From the NCBI GenBank assembly GCA_963716725.1, contig CAVQUB010000008.1, forward strand, positions 359,889 through 423,888: DNA of 64,000 nucleotides, written 5' to 3'. The notes beneath the pieces were generated by a model. That model was not told where the DNA came from. It made no database searches and worked only from the letters and a program-made list of their open reading frames with translations. Every line of letters begins with the position of its first letter. Within the stretch, counting starts at the first letter, position 1. Origin of the DNA: an uncultured delta proteobacterium. Its GTDB lineage: Bacteria; Myxococcota_A; Polyangia; Polyangiales; Polyangiaceae. Position numbers and translations under genes: made by a program. Of this stretch, positions 4,946 through 35,289 are shown piece by piece.

Positions 4946-5051
4946 CCTCCGGCGTCCGCCAGCGGAAATCATACACGGCGCTCTCGGGCTCGGCCACGTC
5001 CTGCGAACGGAGCAATGACGCGGCGCGGTGTGCTAGGCTTCAGCGCGCGCG

Positions 5052-23858: not shown

Positions 23859-24794
23859 TCAGCGACAGGGCGCAGGCGCCCACGTGGCGCCCGTGATCGT
23901 CCCCGTGTGAGCGTTGCCCGAAGTGTCGTTGGCAACGGCGCCCGTTCCTTCGTCGAACTTCCAGAATGCTTGTGTGTCCGCATCCGAGACGAGGTGAAGT
24001 GCCGGTGTGAAGTTCGCGACGTACCGCGCCACCTTCGAGAGACGCATCTCGGAGTAGTAGCCGATGACCGGAGGCGACTGGTAATCCCGTGACACATGGC
24101 CGATCTGCACGGGTCCGGCGGCGTTCGCCACGACGGCAGCGCCGATCACTTCAGAGACCTTTGAACCGTCGATATACCCACGGACGGAGGTCGCGTCGTG
24201 AACGAATGCCACGTGAGTCCACTTCCCCGCGCCGAGAGTCGCCGTGCTGACGACGCCCACCGGAAGGCCGACTGAAGTGTGGAGGTAGATGTTGAGGACG
24301 TTGCCTGCCGCGACCCCGAGGTACTTGTCTTCTTGAGCGAAGGTCCATTTGTTGAACAACGTGCCAGCAGCGGGGACGCCACCGTCGGGCGGAGCGTCCT
24401 CGTAAAGCCAGAGTTCCAGCGTCGCAGCGGACCCGAAGTCGAGGCTGGCAGCGCTCGGGACGGTGATCGTGTGACCCGCCGCCCCAAAGTGCAGAGCGGA
24501 AACGCTACAAGCCGCGTCCGCAGCGTCGGCGACACCGGCATCGGCTTCGACGGCCGCGTCCGTGGCGTCGGGCGCTGCGTCGCTCGCGCCGCTGTCGCCC
24601 GTCACGCTGCCGCCGCTGCCGCCGCTGCCGCCCGTCACGCTGCCGCCGCTGCCGCCGCTGCCGCCCGTCACGCTGCCGCCGCTGCCGCCCGTCACGCTGC
24701 CCTTTCCCCCGGATTTCTCGTCATCCGAACCGCAAGCAACTGCGAGCGCGGCGCAATTGAGCACAGAAATCACGACGGCTATCTTGAAAGTCAT
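23859..24794 (-). CDS. LamG/concanavalin A-like domain lipoprotein
   Basis: Lipobox AVAC, GGSGGSVT tandem repeats, TLELW, WTHVAFV, YIDG, EMRLS..ARY, WKFDEG. Confidence 0.85.
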   Translation of the reverse strand: MTFKIAVVISVLNCAALAVACGSDDEKSGGKGSVTGGSGGSVTGGSGGSGGSVTGGSGGSGGSVTGDSGASDAAPDATDAAVEADAGVADAADAACSVSALHFGAAGHTITVPSAASLDFGSAATLELWLYEDAPPDGGVPAAGTLFNKWTFAQEDKYLGVAAGNVLNIYLHTSVGLPVGVVSTATLGAGKWTHVAFVHDATSVRGYIDGSKVSEVIGAAVVANAAGPVQIGHVSRDYQSPPVIGYYSEMRLSKVARYVANFTPALHLVSDADTQAFWKFDEGTGAVANDTSGNAHTGTITGATWAPAPCR

Positions 24795-25119: not shown

Positions 25120-25361
25120 CAGTGTGAGCGACTGAGCAGTTCTTCGATGTCGGCTCGGGCTTCCGACCAGGGACGAGCAGCCTCTGGGTTGGCGCGATGC
25201 GCCGCAAGGCGCTCGCGGACCCGTGAGCGGTGCGCATCAGAAATCGGCAGGCAATCCTGCTCGGCAACAATCCTGTCCCAGAGCGCGGCTACGTAACGAA
25301 GCTTTTCGTCGGGCGTAAGCTCATCGAAGCCGGGCGGCGGGATCGGAACAGCCTGTGCCAC
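25119..25361 (-). CDS. Addiction module antitoxin component
   Basis: PPPGFDELTPDEKL..V..LWD, ERLAAHRANP....W. Promoter TTGCGA-17-TATGCT lies 6 nt upstream of GTG. Confidence 0.85.
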   Translation of the reverse strand: MAQAVPIPPPGFDELTPDEKLRYVAALWDRIVAEQDCLPISDAHRSRVRERLAAHRANPEAARPWSEARADIEELLSRSH

Positions 25362-25431
25362 GCGAGGAGCATAGCTTCCGCGAACGGCGTTCGCAACGCG
25401 TCGCCCAACGAACGCCGCAGCGGCCTTCGTC

Positions 25432-25595
25432 CGGATACGGATTGGCGTTCACCCGCGAACGCCGTGGCTCATCGTAGCAGACGGCGAGAGGCTGCAGAGC
25501 GGGCGCGTGCCGCAGACTGTGAGGGTGACCGCGCCGCGCGACAGACGGTGAAGTCGGCAAGGCAGGCGTTCGGCGGGTGCAACGGCCAGTTAGAC
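25432..25595 (-). repeat. attC site 1 (R' core degenerate)
   Basis: Family arms GGCGTTCACCCGCGAACGCC ... GGCGTTCGGCGGGTGCAACG-N4-GTTAGAC; left core reads CGGATAC. Confidence 0.8.
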
Positions 25596-25802
25596 GCCGC
25601 CCGCTTTCTTTCGAGCCTCGAGCTGCTGACGAAGTGCGTCGTTCACCGCCTCAGCCGTGGGAAAGAGCCTCGCGAGCTCGGGATCGAGCACGACGACATT
25701 GGTGCCGGCCGCGAACCGGCTCGCGTATTTGCCTCGCACGCCCTTCGAAAAGTCGTACTCAGGCAAGGTGCCTTCGCTCTGGTCATCCGGCTTCGTAGTC
25801 AT
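25590..25802 (-). CDS. BrnA-like antitoxin
   Basis: PEYDFSKGVRGKYA...VVLDPELARLFPTAEAVNDALR; stop codon lies in the attC core. Confidence 0.75.
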   Translation of the reverse strand: MTTKPDDQSEGTLPEYDFSKGVRGKYASRFAAGTNVVVLDPELARLFPTAEAVNDALRQQLEARKKAGGV

Positions 25803-26035
25803 GACGCTCTCGACGAGACGCAAGCCTAGCACTGACTCGAAGAATCGTGCGTCGCGACGGCACCACATCGGGATGGGCGACACGCCGACCGATGCGGGGC
25901 ATGCGCGCCAGAGTCGCGATCGTGTCCCGAAATTCCTCGAAGAAGAGGCTTGGCGCCGAATCCCTGTTCACTCGCCACCAGTCGTCGATCGCCTCGACTT
26001 GACGGTCGGCTTCAGGTGCGAACACGAGGCGCCTG
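25783..26035 (-). pseudogene. Chimeric toxin remnant (RelE/ParE N-terminus fused to BrnT-like C-terminus)
   Basis: LVFAPEADRQVEAIDDWWRVNR...PRIG joined to VSARLASRRERHDYE. Confidence 0.65.
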
Positions 26036-26511
26036 GGGCCTCTTACGCCATGCATGGAACCCGCTGCAAGAGACCTCGAGAACGCGGCACAGCATCGTGA
26101 TTGGGTAGAAGGCCTTCTCGGCGAGGATGAACACGAACTTCATGTGCTCTCCTTCGCGAAGAAGGCCGCCGCTTTTTTCAGGATTTCGCGCTCCATTTGC
26201 AGGCGCTTGTTGTCCCGCCGCAGTTGCGCGAGTTCCGCCCGCTCGTCACTCGTGAGCGCACCTGGCGGTCCGTTGCCGGTGTCGATGTCGGCCCGTTTCA
26301 CCCACTCGCGCAAGGCCGTCTCGGTCAGGTCCAGGTCCCCGGCCACCTGCGTGACGGTCCGATCTCCAACCCTGCAGAGGCGTACTGCCTCGGCCTTGAA
26401 CTCGGGGGTGAATGCTCGTCGCTTCCTACGCTGCTTCTTTCGCTTGTCCATGGATCGCTCCGGGCGCATTGTCGCGCCAGTTGGGGTGTCCACGAAACCG
26501 GGGGAAGATCA
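26035..26511 (-). mobile_element. IS3-family element, left part only (IRL, orfA 26140-26451, start of orfB)
   Basis: End TGATCTTCCCCCGGTTTCGTGGACACC; RRAFTPEFKAEAV...EREILKKAAAFFAKE; orfB MKFVFI...LCRVLEVSCSGFHAW, truncated. Confidence 0.9.
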
Positions 26512-26575
26512 GGCGCAGAACGGACGGTGAAACTCGCCATCACCGGCGTTCGTCGGGTGGAACGTCGAGTTAGAC
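26512..26575 (-). repeat. attC site 2, half site interrupted by IS3
   Basis: Only the arm CCGGCGTTCGTCGGGTGGAACG-N4-GTTAGAC remains, abutting the IS3 end. Confidence 0.8.
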
Positions 26576-26593
26576 AGCCCTCGAGCCACTTGT

Positions 26594-26941
26594 TCACTCC
26601 GCAGCCGCGTCTCCTGCCCCGGCGTCGCAGGGGTTGAGGCTGAGGCTGCTGCTGGTGAGCGTGCAACTCCATGTCCCGGTCGGGCAAGAACACGCGTACT
26701 GCCTGAGCCCCGTCACGTACTGCACTCCGGGTTCGCAAAGAAACTGGACCGAAAGCGAGCAAGCGGCGCCGGTCACGCACCCACCGTCCAACAGTTGGTG
26801 GACGATGGTGCCATCCGCGGGACAGCTTGGGTCGGCTGGGTTTGACGCGGCATCACCACCCTTTGGGGTAGCGGAATTGTTGTCCGCGCAGCCGGACAGA
26901 AGCAGCGCGGGAATCGAGAGGCGGTGGATCAGGAAACGCAT
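26594..26941 (-). CDS. Cys-rich lipoprotein (cassette)
   Basis: Lipobox LSGC; lies between attC sites; GGGGAAG RBS. Confidence 0.75.
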   Translation of the reverse strand: MRFLIHRLSIPALLLSGCADNNSATPKGGDAASNPADPSCPADGTIVHQLLDGGCVTGAACSLSVQFLCEPGVQYVTGLRQYACSCPTGTWSCTLTSSSLSLNPCDAGAGDAAAE

Positions 26942-26961
26942 TGAACTTCCCCGGTGGGTCT

Positions 26962-27126
26962 GCCTAACGAATTGGCGTTCACCCGCGAACGCCGGAGATC
27001 ATCGTAGCAGAGCTCGGGGCGCCACAGAGCGGGCGCAGTGCCGCAAACAGTGAGGGCGCCCGCGACGCGGAACGCACGCGTGGGCTAGCGCGACCGGCGT
27101 TCGGCGGGTGGAACGGCCAGTTATGC
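26962..27126 (-). repeat. attC site 3 (165 bp)
   Basis: GCCTAAC ... GTTATGC with complementary arms and two extrahelical bases. Confidence 0.92.
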
Positions 27127-27444
27127 GGTGCTCGGGGCGGCGCGGTCCAACCAGTAGAGGGGGCGGCGTTTCGCGTGAGCGATGGCGAGCACGAAGACCT
27201 GGTCTTGTCGAACCTCGAACGCGAGCGCAAACGGAAAGCGCTCCAGCAGCGCGCGCCGGATCGGGAGCGGGGAGTCCTCCAGTCTGGTCCAAACGGGAAA
27301 TGCGGCTGGGTCTCGCGTCACGCGATCGAGAGCGAGCATGACCTCCGAGACGAACTCGTCCCCCAGGCCGGGGCGCCGCTCGTCGTACCAAATCGCGGAA
27401 AGGCGGAGCTCGGCACGCGCCTCCGGGTGGAGGTCAACCGCCAC
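27121..27444 (-). CDS. RelE/ParE toxin (cassette)
   Basis: HPEARAEL....WYDERRPGLGDEF...RRALLERFPF...VLAIAHAKRRPLYW; stop codon in the attC core. Confidence 0.9.
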   Translation of the reverse strand: MAVDLHPEARAELRLSAIWYDERRPGLGDEFVSEVMLALDRVTRDPAAFPVWTRLEDSPLPIRRALLERFPFALAFEVRQDQVFVLAIAHAKRRPLYWLDRAAPSTA

Positions 27445-27670
27445 GACGCTGTTTCAGCTCCGCGAGAATCTCGGCGCGTGCCCTCTCCAACGGGACCGGA
27501 ACAACCGTCCCATCCGCAAGCTCGCGTGAACGTCGTTGAAGCTCGCCAGCCCATGCGGCCGCCACATCGTCTTCGGGCTCCTCCAGACTGGAGAGCACTT
27601 CCTCGGCAACGCGCGCGCGCTCACTCCGGGGAAGCCGGAGGACCTGCGCCAGGAGCTCCTCAGTGGACAT
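27434..27670 (-). CDS. Addiction module antitoxin component (cassette)
   Basis: LRLPRSERARVAEEVLSSL...AAW..EL.RR; TGCTATCCT 6 nt upstream of ATG. Confidence 0.88.
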   Translation of the reverse strand: MSTEELLAQVLRLPRSERARVAEEVLSSLEEPEDDVAAAWAGELQRRSRELADGTVVPVPLERARAEILAELKQRRGG

Positions 27671-27797
27671 GCCCGGAGGATAGCACCGTGAAAGCTCCGT
27701 GGAAGTCTCGAAGGCGAAGCATGCGGCGCGCGGTCGGCGACCGGCCAAGCTCGGCGGGCGCGGACATGGCGGTCCAGCAGGGCGTCGTCTCGCAGCC

Positions 27798-27962
27798 GTA
27801 TAACGGGAGGGCGTTCACCCGCGAACGCCGAGCGTCAAGTCGTCGGTCGGCAAGGCGCTACAGACGCGGGCGAGTGCCGCATCAGAATGGTCGCCCGCGG
27901 AAGCGGAACGGACGGTGAAACTCGCCATCACCGGCGTTCGGCGGGTGCAACGTGAGTTATAC
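27798..27962 (-). repeat. attC site 4 (165 bp)
   Basis: GTATAAC ... GTTATAC with family arms. Confidence 0.92.
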
Positions 27963-27991
27963 GGCAGCGTGTCGCCGCGCCGCCCGCGGAG

Positions 27992-29053
27992 TCACGCGCC
28001 GGCGCGTCCCTGCATGCCAGACGTCAGACCGGCGCATTCGATGAACTCGACCTCGCCGGAGTTGTTGCCGACGACGAGCAGGACGGGTGCACGAGTTCCT
28101 GCGTGCACTCGATAGCCGGTTTCCAGGACGGACAAGTCGGAGGTCAGCGCGCAACAACTGACGTCGCGGCGAGCACTGCACTCGGCAATGCCCTCGCCAG
28201 TGGCAGCGGAAGCGATTCGGACCGTGCTGTCAGCACCTACGGACGCGAAATAGGTGCCGGATTCGTCGACCGCGAGCGAGTGGACAGCGTCCTGGTGTGC
28301 GTTGACTTCGAACAACAGATTGGCGCTTCCTCGGTCCCATGCCTTGACGACACCCCTCGCGTCTCCGATCACCATCAGTGACCCCGCGCCCGAGACGCCC
28401 ACGCGAAGGGGCGCATCCAGGTCGCTCTCAATGCTGACGTGTGGGGTGGGCTTGGCGGCGCCCCAGATCTCGAGGGCGCCGGTTTCGGTCAACGCCAAAA
28501 CCGTGAGTTCGTCGAGAAAGAGTGCCGCAGCGAACCGCCGCCGAGAGTCGCGGACTTCGACGGGCGGTAGTACGCCCCCGAGGTCAAGCACGCGCAACAC
28601 GTGTCGGTCGAAACTCTGCAGAATCGCGAACGGCTTCTCCGCAACCGCACAGAGGGTGATGGTCCGCATCACCCGCGGGATTGATGCGACGATTCGCGAC
28701 GCCCCTCCAGTGAGGTCCGAAGCGCGCACCGTGCGATCATCGCTGGCCGAGATGAGCTGGCGCCCACCCGATGCGAACAACACTGAGGTGACCGGCCCAC
28801 CGTGCAGCACGAAGGTCGTGTTGGACTCCGCAGATTCAATCTCCCAGACGGAAAGGGAACCGTCCGCGTGTCCCGTCGCCGCTCGCCGAGACTCCGGATC
28901 GAGCGCGATGCACGACACGGCGCTCGCGCACGTGGATCCATCGGACGGTCCGAGGGAGGGCGCAGGACGCGCGGCGGCCATGACGCGAATTCTACTCCGT
29001 CTTGACGGAGCCTTTTGCGCGGTCGAATGAACGAAGCAATCTCGATCGACCAC
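27992..29053 (-). CDS. WD40-repeat protein (cassette)
   Basis: TGHADGSLSVWE, HGGPVTSV, SASDDRTVR, GVVKAWD, AHQDAVHSLA; start uncertain. Confidence 0.8.
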   Translation of the reverse strand: MVDRDCFVHSTAQKAPSRRSRIRVMAAARPAPSLGPSDGSTCASAVSCIALDPESRRAATGHADGSLSVWEIESAESNTTFVLHGGPVTSVLFASGGRQLISASDDRTVRASDLTGGASRIVASIPRVMRTITLCAVAEKPFAILQSFDRHVLRVLDLGGVLPPVEVRDSRRRFAAALFLDELTVLALTETGALEIWGAAKPTPHVSIESDLDAPLRVGVSGAGSLMVIGDARGVVKAWDRGSANLLFEVNAHQDAVHSLAVDESGTYFASVGADSTVRIASAATGEGIAECSARRDVSCCALTSDLSVLETGYRVHAGTRAPVLLVVGNNSGEVEFIECAGLTSGMQGRAGA

Positions 29054-29073
29054 CGTGGGTCACGAGGTTGGCC

Positions 29074-29238
29074 GGATAACGATCCGGCGTTCACCCGCGA
29101 ACGCCGGAGTTCATCGTAGCAGTTGGCAAGGCGCCGCACACGCGGGCGAGTGCCGCATCAGAGTGGTCGCCCGCGGGCGCGGAACGAACCTTCACGCCTG
29201 GAAGACCGGCGGTCGTCGGGTGCAACGACCGGTTATAC
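29074..29238 (-). repeat. attC site 5 (165 bp)
   Basis: GGATAAC ... GTTATAC with family arms. Confidence 0.92.
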
Positions 29239-29255
29239 AGGTCCTTGGACCATCG

Positions 29256-29558
29256 GTGATTCTGGGCACTGAGAGTGCTGTCGTCGCAGCCGAGCGAGAC
29301 GCTGTGATCTCGGAGCTCGCCAGCAGCCCGCCCGGCCTCTGCTCGCCCTTCGTCGGAGGACGGTTCGGCGGGAACGACCTCGAACGTCTTGCCCGCAGCG
29401 CCGCCCTCGTCGCAACTGACATCGCCTCGCGCGCAACGACGGTGCTGGCACGCACGACGCGACCGGACGCGAGAGTGCCCTTCCGCTTCACCCGCGCGCG
29501 AGGCGATGCGTGTTCTCTCGGCGCTGCCCCACCCGATGGAACTCGCCGAGCTGTATAA
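29256..29558 (+). CDS. Small unknown protein, antisense to the array (cassette, copy A)
   Basis: GTG ATT CTG GGC... MILGTESAVVAAERDAVISEL; differences from paralogues are enriched in synonymous changes in this frame. Confidence 0.55.
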   Translation: MILGTESAVVAAERDAVISELASSPPGLCSPFVGGRFGGNDLERLARSAALVATDIASRATTVLARTTRPDARVPFRFTRARGDACSLGAAPPDGTRRAV

Positions 29559-29717
29559 CGATCCGGCGTTCACCCGCGAACGCCGGAGTTCATCGTAGCA
29601 GTTGGCAAGGCGCCGCACACGCGGGCGAGTGCCGCATCAGAGTGGTCGCCCGCGGGCGCGGAACGAACCTTCACGCCTGGAAGACCGGCGGTCGTCGGGT
29701 GCAACGACCGGTTATAC
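29553..29717 (-). repeat. attC site 6 (165 bp, identical to site 5 apart from the core)
   Basis: GTATAAC ... GTTATAC. Confidence 0.92.
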
Positions 29718-29734
29718 AGGTCCTTGGACCATCG

Positions 29735-30028
29735 GTGATTCTGGGCACTGAGAGTGCTGTCGTCGCAGCCGAGCGAGACGCTGTGATCTCGGAGCTCGCC
29801 AGCAGCCCGCCCGGCCTCTGCTCGCCCTTCGTCGGAGGACGGTTCGGCGGGAACGACCTCGAACGGCTCGCACGCAGCGCCGACTTCGTCGCAACCAGCA
29901 TCGCCTCGCGCGCAACGACGGTGCTGGCACGCACGACGCGACCGGACGCGAGAGTGACCTTCCGCTCTACCCGCGCGCGAGGCGATGCGTGTTCTCTCGG
30001 CGCTGCCCCACCCGACGGATCCCGCTGA
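29735..30028 (+). CDS. Small unknown protein, antisense to the array (cassette, copy B)
   Basis: Paralogue of 29256-29558 with synonymous differences. Confidence 0.55.
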   Translation: MILGTESAVVAAERDAVISELASSPPGLCSPFVGGRFGGNDLERLARSADFVATSIASRATTVLARTTRPDARVTFRSTRARGDACSLGAAPPDGSR

Positions 30029-30031
30029 GCC

Positions 30032-30198
30032 GCATAACGAATTGGCGTTCACCCGCGAACGCCGAGCGTCATCCTAGCAGAGCACGGTGGGCCGCAGCGG
30101 CGGGCGAGTGCCGAAGACAGTGTGGTCGCCCGCCGGCGCGGAACGGAGGGTGAAACTCGCCAAGACCGGCGTTCGGCGGGTGCAACGTCCAGTTATGC
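30032..30198 (-). repeat. attC site 7 (167 bp)
   Basis: GCATAAC ... GTTATGC with family arms. Confidence 0.92.
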
Positions 30199-30591
30199 AG
30201 GGGCGGCAGGATCGTGACGGGTGTGCGCGCGAACCCAAGCCTCAAGCTGGTCCCTGGACGCGGTGCCATCGGCAACGGTGAGGATGATCTGCTCGTGATC
30301 ATCGACGTCGGCGTCAAGTGACACGCCGTTGAGCGCGAGGAAGAGCTCCATGGCGGCGTGGCCAATTCGCTTGTTCCCGTCGACAAAGCCGTGGCCGCGG
30401 ACGAGCCCAAAGCAAAGCGTGGCTGCCTTTGCGATGAGATCAGGATACAGGTCGGCACCGTCAAAGGTGGCCCGCGGTTGGGCGACGGCGGTTTCCACCT
30501 GGCCGAGGTCACGGATACCCGAGGTTCCGCCGGAAGTCTGGATCAGGCGATCGTGGAGCCAGATCACCTCGGTCAGCGAGAGGTGCCTCAT
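30193..30591 (-). CDS. doc: Death-on-curing (Doc/Fic) toxin (cassette)
   Basis: GIRDLG..E.AV.QP, LYPD...KAA, HGFVDGNKRIG. Confidence 0.92.
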   Translation of the reverse strand: MRHLSLTEVIWLHDRLIQTSGGTSGIRDLGQVETAVAQPRATFDGADLYPDLIAKAATLCFGLVRGHGFVDGNKRIGHAAMELFLALNGVSLDADVDDHEQIILTVADGTASRDQLEAWVRAHTRHDPAAPA

Positions 30592-30782
30592 CCCAGGCGT
30601 CGATAGAGCTCAGCGTTCTTAAGCAGCAACTGCTCGGCGTGGGAACGGAACTCATCGGATGGAGGAGCGAGCGCCTCTGCGACCGCGGCGAGCGCAAGCT
30701 CCTCTGGCGAAACACCGAGGGTCTTGGCCCGCGCGAGCAACGCTTCGGACTGCGCTTCCGAGAGGTCGATGGCGAGCTTCAC
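30588..30782 (-). CDS. Antitoxin partner of Doc
   Basis: 64 aa, ends KNAELYRRLG, ATGA overlap with doc; TGGTAGACT upstream. Confidence 0.85.
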   Translation of the reverse strand: MKLAIDLSEAQSEALLARAKTLGVSPEELALAAVAEALAPPSDEFRSHAEQLLLKNAELYRRLG

Positions 30783-30852
30783 GGACTGGAGTCTACCAAG
30801 ATCCTGGCGGTAGTCACGAGGCTCGGTGCAGCGGAGGATCGTGTTCCCCTCT

Positions 30853-31016
30853 GTATAACGATCCGGCGTTCACCCGCGAACGCCGAGACCGAAGATATCA
30901 GAGAGCGCGGCGCTGCACACGCGGGCGAGTGCCGCATCAGAGTGGTCGCCCGCGGGCGCGGAACGAACTTCCACGCTTGGAAGACCGGCGGTCGTCGGGT
31001 GCAACGTGTGTTAGCC
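30853..31016 (-). repeat. attC site 8 (164 bp)
   Basis: GTATAAC ... GTTAGCC with family arms. Confidence 0.92.
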
Positions 31017-31313
31017 AGCCCCGCCGGGCGGATTCCAGCTGATCGGCTTTCGCCGCTGGTGAATGACCGCGACGATAGCCGCTAGATCGCCGACGACGAC
31101 GAAATAGACGCTGTAGGGGAACTTGCGGAGCAGAGCGCGCTGAATCGGTTCCACGACAAAGGCAAACTGTGCGGGGTTCTGCCGAATCCGCTCGAAGATG
31201 ACGTCCAGCTCCGCGAACAAGCGCTGCGCGACGGTCGGGTCTCGTTGGTAGTACCAAGATAGCGCTTCGTCGATGTCGAGCAGCGCGCTCGGGCGAACAA
31301 TGAGCGTCGTCAC
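31011..31313 (-). CDS. RelE/ParE toxin (cassette)
   Basis: RPSALLDIDEALSWY...RALLRKFPYSVYF...VAVIHQRRKP..W. Confidence 0.9.
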   Translation of the reverse strand: MTTLIVRPSALLDIDEALSWYYQRDPTVAQRLFAELDVIFERIRQNPAQFAFVVEPIQRALLRKFPYSVYFVVVGDLAAIVAVIHQRRKPISWNPPGGAG

Positions 31314-31315
31314 CG

Positions 31316-31555
31316 TCAGCGACCGGCCGGATACTTCTGCTGAAGTTCGGCGCGCAACTCACCCCAAGCGCGTCCGGCAGTCGGGTCGGCACGATAGGCT
31401 TCGAGTCGTTCGCGGAGAAGCTCGCGATGCCAGTCTGGAATGGGGACGTCCGCTCGCTCGACGATTTGGTCCCACAAAGACTCGACGTATTCGATCTTTT
31501 CGTCGACCGAGAGCGCATCGAACCCTGGAGGTGGGTTGGGGACCGGTTGAGCCAT
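31316..31555 (-). CDS. Addiction module antitoxin component (cassette)
   Basis: Paralogue of 25119-25361; TTGCCG-17-TAGGCT lies 6 nt upstream of ATG. Confidence 0.88.
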   Translation of the reverse strand: MAQPVPNPPPGFDALSVDEKIEYVESLWDQIVERADVPIPDWHRELLRERLEAYRADPTAGRAWGELRAELQQKYPAGR

Positions 31556-31636
31556 TGGCTAAGCCTAACGCTGCGGGGTGCGCGCGGCAATTTGGCTTGG
31601 TGGATGGGCAGCAAGGCACGAGCGGAGCCGCTGTCT

Positions 31637-31801
31637 GCCTAACGAGACCGCGCTCTCCCGCGAGCGCGCAGGAACATCGTAGCAGACGGCAGGGCGCTTT
31701 CCGAGGCCGGCGTGTGCCGCAAACAGTGGGTCGCCGGCCGCCGCGGAACGGACCGTGAAGTCGGCGAGACCGCGCTCGTCGGGAGCAGCAGCGAGTTAGG
31801 C
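31637..31801 (-). repeat. attC site 9 (165 bp, variant with compensatory substitutions)
   Basis: GCCTAAC..CGCGCTCTCCCGCGAGCGCG ... CGCGCTCGTCGGGAGCAGC..GTTAGGC. Confidence 0.9.
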
Positions 31802-32263
31802 AGCTCGCGCCTTGAGCACTGACACGCGGCAGCGCGGGCCAGGCCAGAGCTGAACGCGATAGTGATCGTCGCCGTCGAGGCCGTCATCGGAGAGCGTATG
31901 AAGACCGCCATAGGAGACGCGGACCTGGAGGATGCCCGGCGGGACATCGAAACGCGACGCATCGGGGAAGTAGTCAGTGCAGCCAGCGATGACGACCCTT
32001 CCGGACGGCACCTCGAGCGAGCACTGCGTGACGTGGTCCCACGGGTCAAGGTCGAGCGGAGGTTCGGCAGGGTGAACCTCCACGAGCACAGGAACCTCCA
32101 TGTTGCGAGCGGTTCCAACCCCGATGACGCGCTCGCCGATCGCGAGGAGTCTGTCGTTTGCCTCGTCGGTCCAGGACTCGGAAAGGTCGCCCTTGGCCTC
32201 GGCGTCCTGCAGGTAGAACTGGTGGTAGTCCGTAAAGAGCTCGAACTGGAACGTGGACGCCAC
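31796..32263 (-). CDS. Conserved hypothetical protein (cassette; possibly immunity-protein-like)
   Basis: DYHQFYLQD, WDHVTQCSLEVPSG, DHYRVQLWP; GTG 6 nt after the core site, stop in the attC core. Confidence 0.8.
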   Translation of the reverse strand: MASTFQFELFTDYHQFYLQDAEAKGDLSESWTDEANDRLLAIGERVIGVGTARNMEVPVLVEVHPAEPPLDLDPWDHVTQCSLEVPSGRVVIAGCTDYFPDASRFDVPPGILQVRVSYGGLHTLSDDGLDGDDHYRVQLWPGPRCRVSVLKARAA

Positions 32264-32269
32264 AGGTCT

Positions 32270-32434
32270 GCCTAACGCTCTGGCGTTCACCCGCGAACGC
32301 CGAGACTCAAGGTAGCAGACGGCACGGCGCTGCACACGCGGGCGAGTGCCGCATCAGAGTGGTCGTCCGCGGTTGCGGAACGGACGGTGAAGACCGGAAG
32401 ACCGGCGGTCGGCGGGTGAAACGCCTTGTTATGC
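32270..32434 (-). repeat. attC site 10 (165 bp)
   Basis: GCCTAAC ... GTTATGC with family arms. Confidence 0.92.
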
Positions 32435-32449
32435 CGTGACAGAATCACG

Positions 32450-32698
32450 GTGATTCTCGGGTCGGAGACTTTCGGCGCCGCCCGACGCGTCGACGCCGTG
32501 GTCTTGGATCTTCTCGACATCTGCGACCGCAACTGTCGCTGCTGCTTCTGCGGGCACAGTCGGCAAGACATCGGTGGTCTTGGTGCAGCGCTGTCGTTCA
32601 ACCGCCGGAACTTTTTCCCGCCGCGACGACGCTCGGGGCTCGCCTCGCGCGACCGGATGCGTCGGAGACTTTCGGCGCTGCCCACGGCAAGACCGTGA
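32450..32698 (+). CDS. Small unknown protein, antisense to the array (distant paralogue of copies A and B)
   Basis: MILGSETFGAARRVDAVVLDL aligns without gaps to MILGTESAVVAAERDAVISEL. Confidence 0.45.
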   Translation: MILGSETFGAARRVDAVVLDLLDICDRNCRCCFCGHSRQDIGGLGAALSFNRRNFFPPRRRSGLASRDRMRRRLSALPTARP

Positions 32699-32740
32699 AG
32701 TCTCGCCAGCGCTGCCCGCTGCATAGAGAAATGAACAGCG

Positions 32741-32906
32741 GCATAACGGGAGGGCGTTCACCCGCGAACGCCGGAGAACATCGTAGCAGAGCTCGATGCG
32801 CTGCAGCCGCGGGCGAGTGCCGCATCAGAGTGGTCGCCCGCGGGAGCGGAACGGGCGCTTGCGCAAGGCCTGACCGGCGTTCGGCGGGTGGAACGTCGAG
32901 TTAGGC
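32741..32906 (-). repeat. attC site 11 (166 bp)
   Basis: GCATAAC ... GTTAGGC with family arms. Confidence 0.92.
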
Positions 32907-32921
32907 GGCAACGGTCGGCGT

Positions 32922-33272
32922 TCACGGTTCTGGGTCGAGGCGTCCCAGGGCCTCATCCGTCGCGAGCTCGAGCTCTGTCAGCTCGGTCTCGGTCAGGGCG
33001 CGCACGAACGTGTCCAGCGCCGCCTTCGGGACTGCGCGCATCTGAAACGCGAGCGCGACGGAGTCGGATGCGGGACCGAGCTCCGTGGCTGAGACGAGCG
33101 CCGTCCCGGCGAGTCGAGCACGTTCCATGTTGGTTGTCAGCGGCACGACGAGCACCGACTGCAGCACGCCAGTTAGAGCGTCGCTTTGCCAAACGACCAC
33201 GGGGCGCCGGCCAGTCTGCTCGCGAGGGCGATGGGCTCCAAGATCGGCCCACCAAATCTCGCCCCGTTTCAC
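32922..33272 (-). CDS. mazF: MazF/PemK toxin (cassette)
   Basis: KRGEIWWADL, EQTGRRPVVV, VLVVPLTT, Q.RAV.K; GTGA overlap with the antitoxin stop. Confidence 0.92.
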   Translation of the reverse strand: MKRGEIWWADLGAHRPREQTGRRPVVVWQSDALTGVLQSVLVVPLTTNMERARLAGTALVSATELGPASDSVALAFQMRAVPKAALDTFVRALTETELTELELATDEALGRLDPEP

Positions 33273-33493
33273 CGACGGTCCTCCGCATCGAGCGCGTCCG
33301 CCCAGCCAACCAAACCCGCCGCCGCGAGGGCAGCGTCTTCGCCGCCGGATGCAGCGGCGATTCGCCGGAGATCCCATCGCGCAGGGTCGGGTCGGCGCAC
33401 CAGGATGACCCCCACCCGCTCTCCTGGTTGCAGGGGCAACGGCCGATCGGGCTTCAGCTGGCCGTCTACGTAGCGTGCCTCGACGGGGCGCAT
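33269..33493 (-). CDS. DUF104/AF2212-like antitoxin
   Basis: VEARYVDGQLKP..PLPL..GERV; TGCTATGCT 7 nt upstream of ATG. Confidence 0.8.
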   Translation of the reverse strand: MRPVEARYVDGQLKPDRPLPLQPGERVGVILVRRPDPARWDLRRIAAASGGEDAALAAAGLVGWADALDAEDRR

Positions 33494-33533
33494 GGCGCAG
33501 AGCATAGCACGGCCGGTTGCGAACTAGTGCCCG

Positions 33534-33567
33534 CCGGCGTTCGGCGGGTGCAACGTGAGTTCAGGCG
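33534..33567 (-). repeat. attC site 12, half site only
   Basis: CCGGCGTTCGGCGGGTGCAACGTGAGTTCAGGC; other arm missing, core has a 1-bp insertion. Confidence 0.75.
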
Positions 33568-33584
33568 GCTGGGTCAGGACGCCA

Positions 33585-34112
33585 TTAGTTGTTCCAGCCG
33601 GCGATGCCAGTGAACCGAAATGATCCCACGACGACCTTCGGTTCCGGGTTGCCCGGTTCAGACTTGGCGGGCGCACTGCACGCCCCATACGCCGTGACGT
33701 AGGCGATCGTGGCTGGGCCGCTGTTCTGCTGGACGCGAATGCGTTCCACGGTGGCCGAGCAATCCTCGGCAAACCAACCGGGGACAGCGGAGTCCGTTGC
33801 CGACGGGAGGAGTCGAAGGTGCGCTGGGATCGTGGCGCCGACGCTCGCGGTAGCAAGATCCGGCACTTGGAAGATGAAGCGACGAACAGGGGACCCGGCA
33901 TGCACAGTGAATCCAATCTCGACGATCCCGGGTCCGTACCCCGCGCCGCAGCCGACTGGAGAACCTTCCGCGACGTGCTGAGTCCCGCCGCCGGATAGCG
34001 ACATCTCGAGACTGCACTCCGGGGCTCGATCCTCCTCGGCTGGAGATCCGCACGAGAGCATCATCGCGAACGGCACCGGTACCGCGGAGAGCAGCTTGGT
34101 AAGCGTGTTCAT
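33585..34112 (-). CDS. Hypothetical lipoprotein (first cassette)
   Basis: ATG 5 nt after the GTTAGGC core; signal peptide ending MLSC. Confidence 0.75.
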   Translation of the reverse strand: MNTLTKLLSAVPVPFAMMLSCGSPAEEDRAPECSLEMSLSGGGTQHVAEGSPVGCGAGYGPGIVEIGFTVHAGSPVRRFIFQVPDLATASVGATIPAHLRLLPSATDSAVPGWFAEDCSATVERIRVQQNSGPATIAYVTAYGACSAPAKSEPGNPEPKVVVGSFRFTGIAGWNN

Positions 34113-34117
34113 CGTCC

Positions 34118-34134
34118 GCCTAACGTCCATTCTA
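34118..34134 (-). promoter_or_regulatory. Putative attI core (GTTAGGC) with adjacent -10 hexamer TAGAAT
   Basis: Minus strand TAGAATggacGTTAGGC; the TAG is the intI stop. No attC arms flank this core. Confidence 0.65.
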
Positions 34135-35289
34135 CCTCGGACGCTTCGGCGAAGCACCGGGTCTCGGCTCGGCGCCGTTTCCCATGATCTCCGGCGCTTG
34201 CGCCCGACGTGGCGCGTCCGGGGTCGCGTTATGCGGTTCCGCATAGCCAGATAGGTGGTGCCCGAGGGGGAGGTTGATTGCGAGCTGGTCGAGGGGGCTC
34301 CGAACGCCATGTCCGCCGCGGTTCAGGACGTGCGTGTAGATCATGGTCGTGGTGACGTCCGCGTGGCCGAGCAGCTCTTGGATGGTGCGGATGTCGTAGC
34401 CGGCTTCCAGTAAGTGGGTGGCGAAGGAGTGCCGGAGCGCGTGGCAGCTGACCGGCTTGGTGAGGCCGGCTTCCAGCGCGGCTCGCCGAACCGCGCGTTG
34501 CAGAACTGTTTGGTGAAGGTGGTGGCGTCGGCGCTCGCCGGTGACGCGATCCGTGTAGTGACGTTCTGCGGGGAACACCCACTGCCACGCCCACTCACGC
34601 GGGGCATCCGGATATTTGCGCGCGAGCGCGTAAGGCAGCTCGACGCTGCCCAGGCCGTTGCGCAAGTCGGCGTCGTGCTGGGATCGGACGCCTGCGAGGT
34701 GACGCGTCAGGGGCTCGAGCATCGAGACGGGGAGTGGGGTCACGCGGTCCTTCCTCCCCTTCCCGCAGCGGACCGTGATCTCGTGGCGATGCAAGTCGAT
34801 GTCCTTGACGCGCAAGCTCGCGCACTCCATCAGGCGCAAGCCCCCGCCGTAGACTAGCGATGCCATGAGCCACGTCGTGCCCTGAAGGCGCCCGAGCACG
34901 ACCGCGATCTCGACGTGCGAAAGCACAACCGGGAGGCGAACCGGCCGCTTCGCGCGCACCACGCCGTCGAACAAGTTGAGGTTGTGGCCGAGCACCTCTC
35001 CGTACAAGAAGAGCAGCGCCGCCGCTGCCTGGTTCTGCGTCGACGCGCTGACCTTCCGATGCGTGGCCAGGTACGACAGGAAGCCGGAGACGTGCGTGGC
35101 GTCGAGCTCGGCTGGGTGGCGCCGCTGGTGGAAGAGGATGTAGCGCCGCACCCAACCGCAGTACGCCTTCTCGGTTCGTGGGCTCAGGCCCCGCATTCGC
35201 AGCGCGCTGCGCACCTCGTCGAGCAGGCGTGGCTTCGCCAGTTCCCCAGTGGACACGCACGCACAGAAGCATTCACCGTGCCGGACCAC
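34132..35289 (-). CDS. intI: Integron integrase
   Basis: [34 protein letters not shown], integron-specific insert [46 protein letters not shown]. True start may be about 35256. Confidence 0.97.

Follow-up and report, generated by a model that had tools for sequence, protein, structure and literature searches.

A putative extended -10 promoter within the attC sites of an integron array from an uncultured member of the Polyangiaceae

How are the gene cassettes of a long integron array transcribed when most of them lie far from the integron platform? In the standard integron model cassettes are promoterless, and the distal ones of large arrays are mostly silent until they are moved beside the platform promoter, Pc. 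The question is raised by a stretch of 64,000 nucleotides (here called the window) from an uncultured member of the Polyangiaceae (assembly GCA_963716725.1, contig CAVQUB010000008.1, positions 359,889 to 423,888), which holds an integron integrase gene, intI, and downstream of it an array of cassettes separated by recombination sites (attC). A first-pass annotation had noticed the box TGnTAnnnT in these attC sites, and had read it as a promoter facing the next cassette. We consider it somewhat probable, at roughly 55%, that most attC sites of this genus contain a real, outward-facing promoter of the extended -10 type.

A box at a fixed position of attC

The window contains ten full-length attC sites of 163-167 nt, located downstream of intI on the minus strand (Table 1). 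Two features identify the minus strand as the cassette (top) strand. The open reading frames (ORFs) and intI lie on it, and the extra, extrahelical bases of the L box, two in number, fall in the 3' half when the plus strand is read and in the 5' arm when the minus strand is read, which marks plus as the bottom strand. On the top strand, the core sites R'' (RYYYAAC) and R' (GTTRRRY) are found at the 5' and 3' ends, respectively. All ten sites begin with ...TAAC and nine end in GTTA(G/T)RY, the R' of the last site being degenerate. The L'' and L' boxes form an imperfect palindrome, for which RNAalifold predicts a stem with 27 R- and L-box pairs; in the site at 31637, pairs 21/159 and 25/156 are altered on both sides, which is a compensatory change. 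Mean identity among the ten sites is 81%. Each L-box arm is in addition a small palindrome of its own (GGCGTTC-6 nt-GAACGCC, for example at 26975-26994 and 27097-27118), and can therefore fold by itself instead of joining the long attC stem.

Nine of the ten sites have TGnTAnnnT on the cassette strand, always at a distance of exactly 39 nt from where the R' heptamer starts, as had been stated in the first-pass annotation. The pattern, ANNNTANCA on the plus strand and TGNTANNNT on the minus strand, starts at the lower of the two coordinates given for each box in Table 1. The hexamers are those listed before (TACGAT six times; TAGGAT, TATCTT and TACCTT once each), and the box faces R' and the next cassette, also as described. 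It lies about 60-80 nt ahead of the next ORF. The tenth site has CGACGACTT at the same place (27837-27845). It had been regarded as a decayed copy, a view that we abandon, because the sequence is a close variant of an alternative allele, TGACGACTT, that is common in the genus (see below).

Over the whole window the pattern occurs 17 times, against 12.07 ± 3.30 expected, and 17 matches were reached in 9 of 100 shuffles, which is at chance level. It is the placement of the matches, not their number, that is non-random. All eight copies outside attC (at 5031, 8461, 25823, 27677, 30790, 33501, 36735 and 61844) stand 6-20 nt ahead of an ORF that is 64-307 codons long, which bears out the earlier remark that the motif also precedes ordinary genes.

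The sigma-70 extended -10 element has the form TGnTAnnnT, with TG at -15/-14, T-12, A-11 and T-7. In the host draft genome (7.9 Mb, 68% G+C) the pattern occurs 959 times, and in 189 cases an ATG or GTG starts 6-9 nt after the hexamer and opens an ORF that has 70 codons or more and is rich in G+C at third codon positions. At offsets of 6, 7, 8 and 9 nt there are 47, 45, 45 and 52 such starts, compared with about 2-13 at most other offsets, and three control patterns of like composition give no peak, just the 3-nt periodicity of coding sequence. The geometry of the peak is that expected of leaderless mRNAs made from an extended -10 promoter. Together with the eight window copies in front of ORFs, the positional peak supports the reading of TGnTAnnnT as a promoter signature. 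A set of 187 of these putative leaderless promoters displays no -35 signal and a preponderance of G+C in the middle of the hexamer; of the hexamers seen in attC, TACGAT, TAAGAT and TAGGAT are each represented four times in it. The box alone is probably close to sufficient for promoter recognition in this organism. Within genes TGnTAnnnT is found 116 times, against 193-510 for near-identical spacing variants, as assigned by a crude coding-state classifier; over the genome, controls with other TG-to-TA spacings number 826-952, against 959, and just the TAnnT and TAnnnnT variants are commoner, so that these plain counts lend a depletion weak support.

The leaderless design is widespread in the genome, as many TAnnnT hexamers without TG also lie 6-9 nt before a start codon followed by a long ORF. 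Two promoter candidates of the conventional kind were rejected: a canonical -35/-10 promoter, since no TTGACA-like hexamer lies 16-18 nt upstream of the -10 box, and the TTGACG of the alternative allele as a -35 element, since no -10 hexamer lies 17 nt downstream.

Conservation in the genus and in a second attC family

A covariance model was built from the ten window sites. The attC family occurs in each of the six further genomes of the genus searched with it, and weakly in 5 of 30 other genera of the taxonomic family. From 20 stretches and the host genome itself, covering six genomes of the genus, nhmmer recovered 277 full-length attC sites, 272 of them unique. TGnTAnnnT is present in 164 of the 272, and in 19 of the 25 sites of the host genome, while 95 of the 272 carry the uniform alternative TGACGACTT. 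The claim that each recombination site bears the promoter was therefore too strong.

The positions that define the box evolve slowly. Fitch parsimony on a tree built without the motif region, with counts uncorrected for recombination and for descent shared by the repeats, gave 6, 15 and 3 changes at C121, T122 and G123, 10 and 16 at T125 and A126, and 3 at T130. At the n positions 124, 127, 128 and 129 there were 54, 43, 24 and 25 changes, in columns 131-136 after the hexamer 33-48, and in columns 118-120 before C121 26-39. The comparison of homologous attC sites that had been suggested as a check on the promoter reading came out in its favour: across the 272 sites TG, TA and the final T are slow (3-16 changes) relative to spacers and flanks (24-54), and there is no complementary covariation.

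The statement that the motif has no pairing partner is likewise borne out. RNAalifold leaves it unpaired in alignments of 10 and of 25 sites, mutual information over the 272 sites reveals local linkage alone and no complementary covarying column, and in nine bottom-strand DNA folds the motif is either unpaired or paired inconsistently. A GCAG/CTGC mini-hairpin was considered and rejected: its 5' side (columns 106-109) varies and CTG is invariant, without covariation.

Two allele classes are distinguished when the sites are split by columns 125-126 alone. The TA class (166 sites, TGnTAnnnT) has TG in 164 and the final T in all 166, and all four bases occur in the middle of its hexamer. The CG class (95 sites, TGACGACTT) has TG in 82 and the final T in 94, and its middle is nearly invariant. 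Outside the motif, mean pairwise identity is 75% in the TA class and 86% in the CG class, the TA class being the more diverged. TG is lost in 2 of the 166 TA sites and in 13 of the 95 CG sites (Fisher p = 6e-5, uncorrected for shared descent).

A second attC family was found in another genome of the genus (G006, 73% complete), which contains an array of attC sites of about 190 nt. Their interior is unrelated to that of the window sites (family 1) and their L' arm is different; no IntI was found in this genome at E <= 1e-30. The arms are likewise palindromic, with another sequence (GCTGC-CTTC-GCAGC). All 17 full sites carry TGnTAnnnT on the top strand, the orientation having been checked by cassette-filling ORFs, and at least nine hexamers are used, including TATCTT, TATTCT, TATTGT, TACCAT, TATCAT, TATCGT, TATCCT, TATTAT and TACTGT. 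The distance from the motif to the 3' end of the site is 55-58 nt in family 2 and 47 nt in family 1, and the position of the box therefore floats relative to the L' box; the gap between hexamer and L' arm is 6 nt in family 1 and about 13 nt in family 2. Against plain descent, and equally against a fixed contact in recombination, the persistence of the box in unrelated surroundings is in our view the strongest argument.

A possible promoter in attC and its alternatives

We propose that the attC sites of this chromosomal integron are bifunctional, in that most of them would combine the R and L boxes of the integrase with a self-contained extended -10 promoter (TGnTAnnnT without a -35 box), placed on the cassette strand in the unpaired interior, 6 nt before the L' arm. 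The primary (housekeeping) sigma factor would bind the box in double-stranded attC, as at the many leaderless genes of the organism, and transcription would start about 7 nt downstream of the box, in columns 137-139 at the foot of the L' arm. For the site at 26962..27125 the predicted transcript start is close to 26994, at the base of the hairpin formed by the L' arm. The RNA would then run through L' and R' into the next cassette. Since an attC-initiated RNA would lack the 5' arm, the full attC stem-loop, which is reported to impede ribosomes on read-through mRNA (PMC8876359), could not form. The L' arm of family 1 is itself a 7-bp hairpin, a detail that family 2 lacks, and it would stand at the very 5' end of the RNA. 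Stem-loops at the 5' terminus can stabilise bacterial mRNAs. Each cassette would in this way supply a promoter to its downstream neighbour and, in the excised circle, to itself, because according to the standard integron model the box there faces the cassette's own gene. With a promoter delivered per cassette, expression would be largely independent of the distance from the platform; and since the box is absent from the second allele, TGACGACTT, the order of the cassettes would determine which genes are turned on. The full picture, in which attC, beside its role in recombination, acts as a portable promoter, arrays of tens of kb are expressed throughout, an on/off polymorphism of TGnTAnnnT and TGACGACTT is reshuffled and the stem-loop is escaped, is put forward more tentatively, at a little short of even chances.

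Most cassettes do seem to require transcription from outside. Among the 241 cassettes bounded by two family 1 attC sites, 37 have a TAnnnT on the top strand 6-9 nt before the start codon of an ORF of at least 40 codons, and 17 of these also have TG; within the window, the cassettes with a leaderless promoter of their own are mostly toxin-antitoxin units. In the genus genome G002, a single co-oriented intI precedes an array that extends from about 669.6 to 727.7 kb (about 60 kb). With few cassettes self-promoted and arrays this long, most cassettes would therefore depend on outside transcription, and one platform promoter is not expected to cover such distances (PMC8876359).

Several observations weigh against a promoter in attC. 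The motif is missing from 108 of the 272 genus sites, about one third of all sites having the uniform alternative, so the box is dispensable for attC. TG and the final T are largely kept in the CG class, without TA, and part of their conservation is therefore left unexplained by a -10 element; the same invariance is shown by many further columns of the interior. On this sequence pattern, some constraint, descent or recent expansion that has nothing to do with a -10 box must also act, and the tree counts and the Fisher test take no account of recombination and shared descent among the repeats. The predicted leader would comprise about 27 nt of attC and a further 30-50 nt or so, whereas elsewhere in the genome the motif serves genes with a short leader or none, and it opens with the GC-rich L' hairpin, which at one site, followed by AATTCGTTAT, was flagged as terminator-like. 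A promoter scan of 25300-33700 gave 0 promoter-like sites, and there is no -35 box. The idea that a promoterless attC is offset by a cassette with its own promoter is not borne out as a trend: cassettes behind promoterless sites are not enriched for such promoters (15 of 84 after the CG class versus 21 of 149 after the TA class). Finally, model R1 yielded 62 attC sites from other lineages, and interior TAnnnT occurs on the top strand in 16 of them and on the bottom strand in 9, which is about chance, and at three loci labelled Eisenbacteria it occurs in 4 of 23 sites on either strand. Individual TAGAAT and TAGGAT boxes are seen in attC sites of other lineages, with no pattern. As there is no top-strand excess elsewhere, the feature, if real, belongs to this genus. 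The promoter reading of the first-pass annotation thus stands with respect to the signature, the slow positions, the lack of a pairing partner and the geometry, and it has gained the second attC family; its universality and the compensation by self-promoted cassettes have fallen away, and the platform is not the standard one.

The conserved C-TG-n-(TA)-nnn-T might instead serve recombination, through a contact with a host factor or with IntI beyond the L box, or through folding or strand choice of the single-stranded site, the likeness to a -10 box being coincidental and causing at most incidental, weak transcription. The retention of C121, TG and the final T in both allele classes would fit such a role, as would the equal invariance of columns 53-64, 69-75 and 88-101, and the attC interior is known to influence the orientation of insertion (PMC5027507). 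We nevertheless judge it unlikely: the motif is left unpaired and lacks a covarying partner, TG is lost more frequently where the hexamer is absent, and the unequal gap between box and L' arm in the two families argues against a fixed protein geometry, quite apart from the retention of TGnTAnnnT in all family 2 sites, whose interior is otherwise unrelated. Slightly less likely still is that the box has no function and was inherited with a young, expanding repeat family, by common descent and gene conversion among attC sites. In sedentary chromosomal integrons the attC repeats of a species are typically near-identical and peculiar to it (PMC8876359), and the 81% identity of the window sites, the lack of enrichment in other lineages and the existence of an alternative allele, which shows that another sequence is tolerated, all agree with descent. 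Descent alone, however, does not predict five slow consensus positions among spacers and flanks that change 2-15 times faster, nor retention at 99-100% in the older and more diverse allele class, nor retention in 17 of 17 sites with at least nine hexamers in a family with unrelated interior.

Very improbable, in our view, is a third alternative, in which the T-G after the hexamer belongs to the start codon (ATG or TTG) of a mini-ORF of seven codons, ending at a TGA in the L' arm, whose translation would open the hairpin on read-through mRNA and so help ribosomes to reach the next cassette. The mini-ORF spans attC columns 129-152 (for example 27002-26979 on the minus strand), and short ORFs in attC that relieve stem-loop barriers have been described (PMC8876359). 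ATG or TTG is present at columns 129-131 in 224 of the 272 sites and a 7-residue peptide runs to an in-frame TGA in 180, yet a Shine-Dalgarno-like word is found in the 15 nt upstream in 0 of 272, and G at column 131 in just 123 of the 166 TA-class sites. Such a mini-ORF would explain neither TG nor TA, and most family 2 sites lack a start codon at the matching place.

If the box is an extended -10 promoter, it would be a variant of the intra-array promoters already known from Vibrio sp. DAT722, gene-less cassettes, toxin-antitoxin cassettes and group IIC-attC introns. The closest precedent is the sigma-70-type promoter at the junction of cassettes 20 and 21 in DAT722, which likewise overlaps attC and drives the next cassette (PMC2945992). 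There, the -35 box lies in attC and recurs in several attC sites of the array, while the -10 box lies in cassette 21 and is described as unique to it, so that the composite promoter was found once (PMC2945992). Here, in contrast, the whole extended -10 element lies inside attC, in 9 of 10 window sites and 164 of 272 genus sites; the DAT722 promoter is backed by transcript data, whereas the attC box is a prediction from sequence. Michael and Labbate argued in 2010 for broad expression of large arrays, driven by promoters within them (PMC2945992).

Gene-less cassettes that carry promoters feed downstream cassettes in Vibrionaceae (Blanco et al., 2024; PMC11014356) and occur in Treponema integrons, where intI likewise has the orientation of the cassettes (Tansirichaiya et al., bioRxiv 10.1101/427781). 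Their promoters lie in the body of special cassettes without an ORF, whereas the box described here is conserved at a fixed attC column in DNA of 68% G+C. Blanco et al. also mapped transcript starts inside attC (cassette F2) by rapid amplification of 5' cDNA ends; these were scattered and judged possibly spurious owing to the AT-rich DNA (PMC11014356). Group IIC-attC introns supply outward promoters to downstream cassettes (Leon and Roy, 2010; PMC3001079). They resemble the attC box in that an element at attC provides the promoter, which in their case belongs to the inserted mobile intron and not to attC. Pc is the single platform promoter that transcribes promoterless cassettes, with expression that falls with distance (PMC8876359; for Pc of V. 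cholerae see PMC3948777). Its role would be the same as that of the attC box, of which one copy would exist per cassette junction.

In the literature searched (full text, with subscription journals outside the search), we found no conserved, complete promoter inside the attC repeat itself. If the promoter is real, the distal cassettes of this lineage would not be silent and would be expressed wherever they are placed, which would change the cost-benefit view of large arrays, and the evolution of the attC sequence would be shaped by transcription as well as by recombination. The two natural alleles, which differ at the box, and the leaderless promoters of the organism as internal positive controls are at hand for this question.

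Layout of the integron and its cassettes

The product of intI matches TIGR02249 (integrase_gron) with 443.8 bits (cut-off 265) and has the Pfam domains Phage_integrase and SAM-like N. The platform is not the standard one: the gene lies upstream of the cassette array and on the same strand. attI and Pc were not located in the window. Integrons with intI co-oriented with the cassettes have been called 'reverse' or unusual (bioRxiv 10.1101/427781). The same layout next to an array is seen in G002. Given this orientation, transcription of intI could read into the cassettes. The 570 nt from the half attC site at 33507-33563 to the stop codon of intI have no Pfam match.

The nearest relatives of this IntI (67-69% identity) are from metagenome-assembled genomes labelled Candidatus Eisenbacteria and Gemmatimonadetes. 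In metagenome-assembled genomes of many phyla with relatives of the integrase (loci L007-L086), matches of model R1 nearly always follow intI downstream on its own strand, and it therefore seems that the whole clade of this IntI has the 'reverse' layout. In the sister genome G003, the integrase genes adjoining two large arrays (G003:C12:272211-273154 and G003:C8:737966-738902) are split or contain an in-frame TGA, and may therefore be inactive.

Table 1. Positions of the integrase gene, the attC sites and promoter-type boxes in the window. Coordinates are those of the window; boxes are given in the direction of the minus strand.
Feature	Position	Strand	Remarks
intI (integron integrase, 385 aa)	34132..35289	minus	TIGR02249 and Pfam
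Promoter-type box, MazF-type toxin cassette	33501..33509	minus	TGCTATGCT, 7 nt, ATG 33493
attC	32741..32906	minus	box TGCTACGAT at 32788-32780
attC	32270..32434	minus	box TGCTACCTT at 32317-32309
attC, compensatory L-box changes (GCGCTC/GAGCGC)	31637..31801	minus	box TGCTACGAT at 31684-31676
attC	30853..31016	minus	box TGATATCTT at 30900-30892
Promoter-type box upstream of Doc/Fic toxin gene	30790..30798	minus	TGGTAGACT, 7 nt, GTG 30782
attC	30032..30198	minus	box TGCTAGGAT at 30079-30071
attC in 479-bp tandem cassette duplication (99% identical)	29553..29717	minus	box TGCTACGAT at 29600-29592
attC	29074..29238	minus	box TGCTACGAT at 29121-29113
attC, second allele class, no -10-like hexamer	27798..27962	minus	CGACGACTT at 27845-27837
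Promoter-type box in toxin-antitoxin cassette	27677..27685	minus	TGCTATCCT, 6 nt, ATG 27670 (putatively leaderless); Pfam Unstab_antitox and ParE
attC	26962..27125	minus	box TGCTACGAT at 27009-27001; next ORF starts 26941
Last full attC, degenerate R' (GTATCCG)	25432..25594	minus	box TGCTACGAT at 25479-25471
Half attC sites	26495-26565 and 33507-33563

The attC sites separate short cassettes of one or two genes in a single orientation, with spacings of 471-1530 nt. According to Pfam, the cassettes encode four ParE/antitoxin pairs, one of them broken by an insertion sequence (IS) fragment, a Doc toxin unit and a MazF unit; the remaining ones encode a WD40 protein and small proteins without a Pfam match. 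The half attC site at 33507-33563, which consists of the R''-L'' arm only, runs straight into the putative leaderless promoter of the MazF-type cassette. At 31556-31575, inside a second GTTAGGC-like word, TAGGCT lies 6 nt before the ATG of the ParE/antitoxin cassette at 31011-31555, which by its sequence is another self-promoted toxin-antitoxin cassette, without TG.

An IS3-type transposase orfA (HTH_Tnp_1, 26140-26493) and the start of a truncated orfB abut the half attC site at 26495-26565; the IS fragment (26054-26565 region) appears to interrupt the ParE-type cassette at 25783-26055. Between 29072 and 30029 an entire cassette with its attC site is present as a tandem duplicate, with a period of 479 bp and 99% identity over 300 nt.

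Metagenome contigs join attC copies to other neighbours, with joints and loose ends at the attC borders, although their source may be relatives. The genus is present in runs from biofilter and groundwater. One RNA run (5% of words) and three DNA runs gave, over 25400-33600, just contig pieces of the attC family and the Doc cassette of a relative; the RNA run, which may contain DNA, exists in assembled form, from which neither transcript starts nor strand nor level can be read. A search against Rfam gave no family match in the window. Beyond the last cassette, a long minus-strand ORF contains a dense 9- and 15-nt periodic repeat (GCC GCT GCC...) at 24572-24727.

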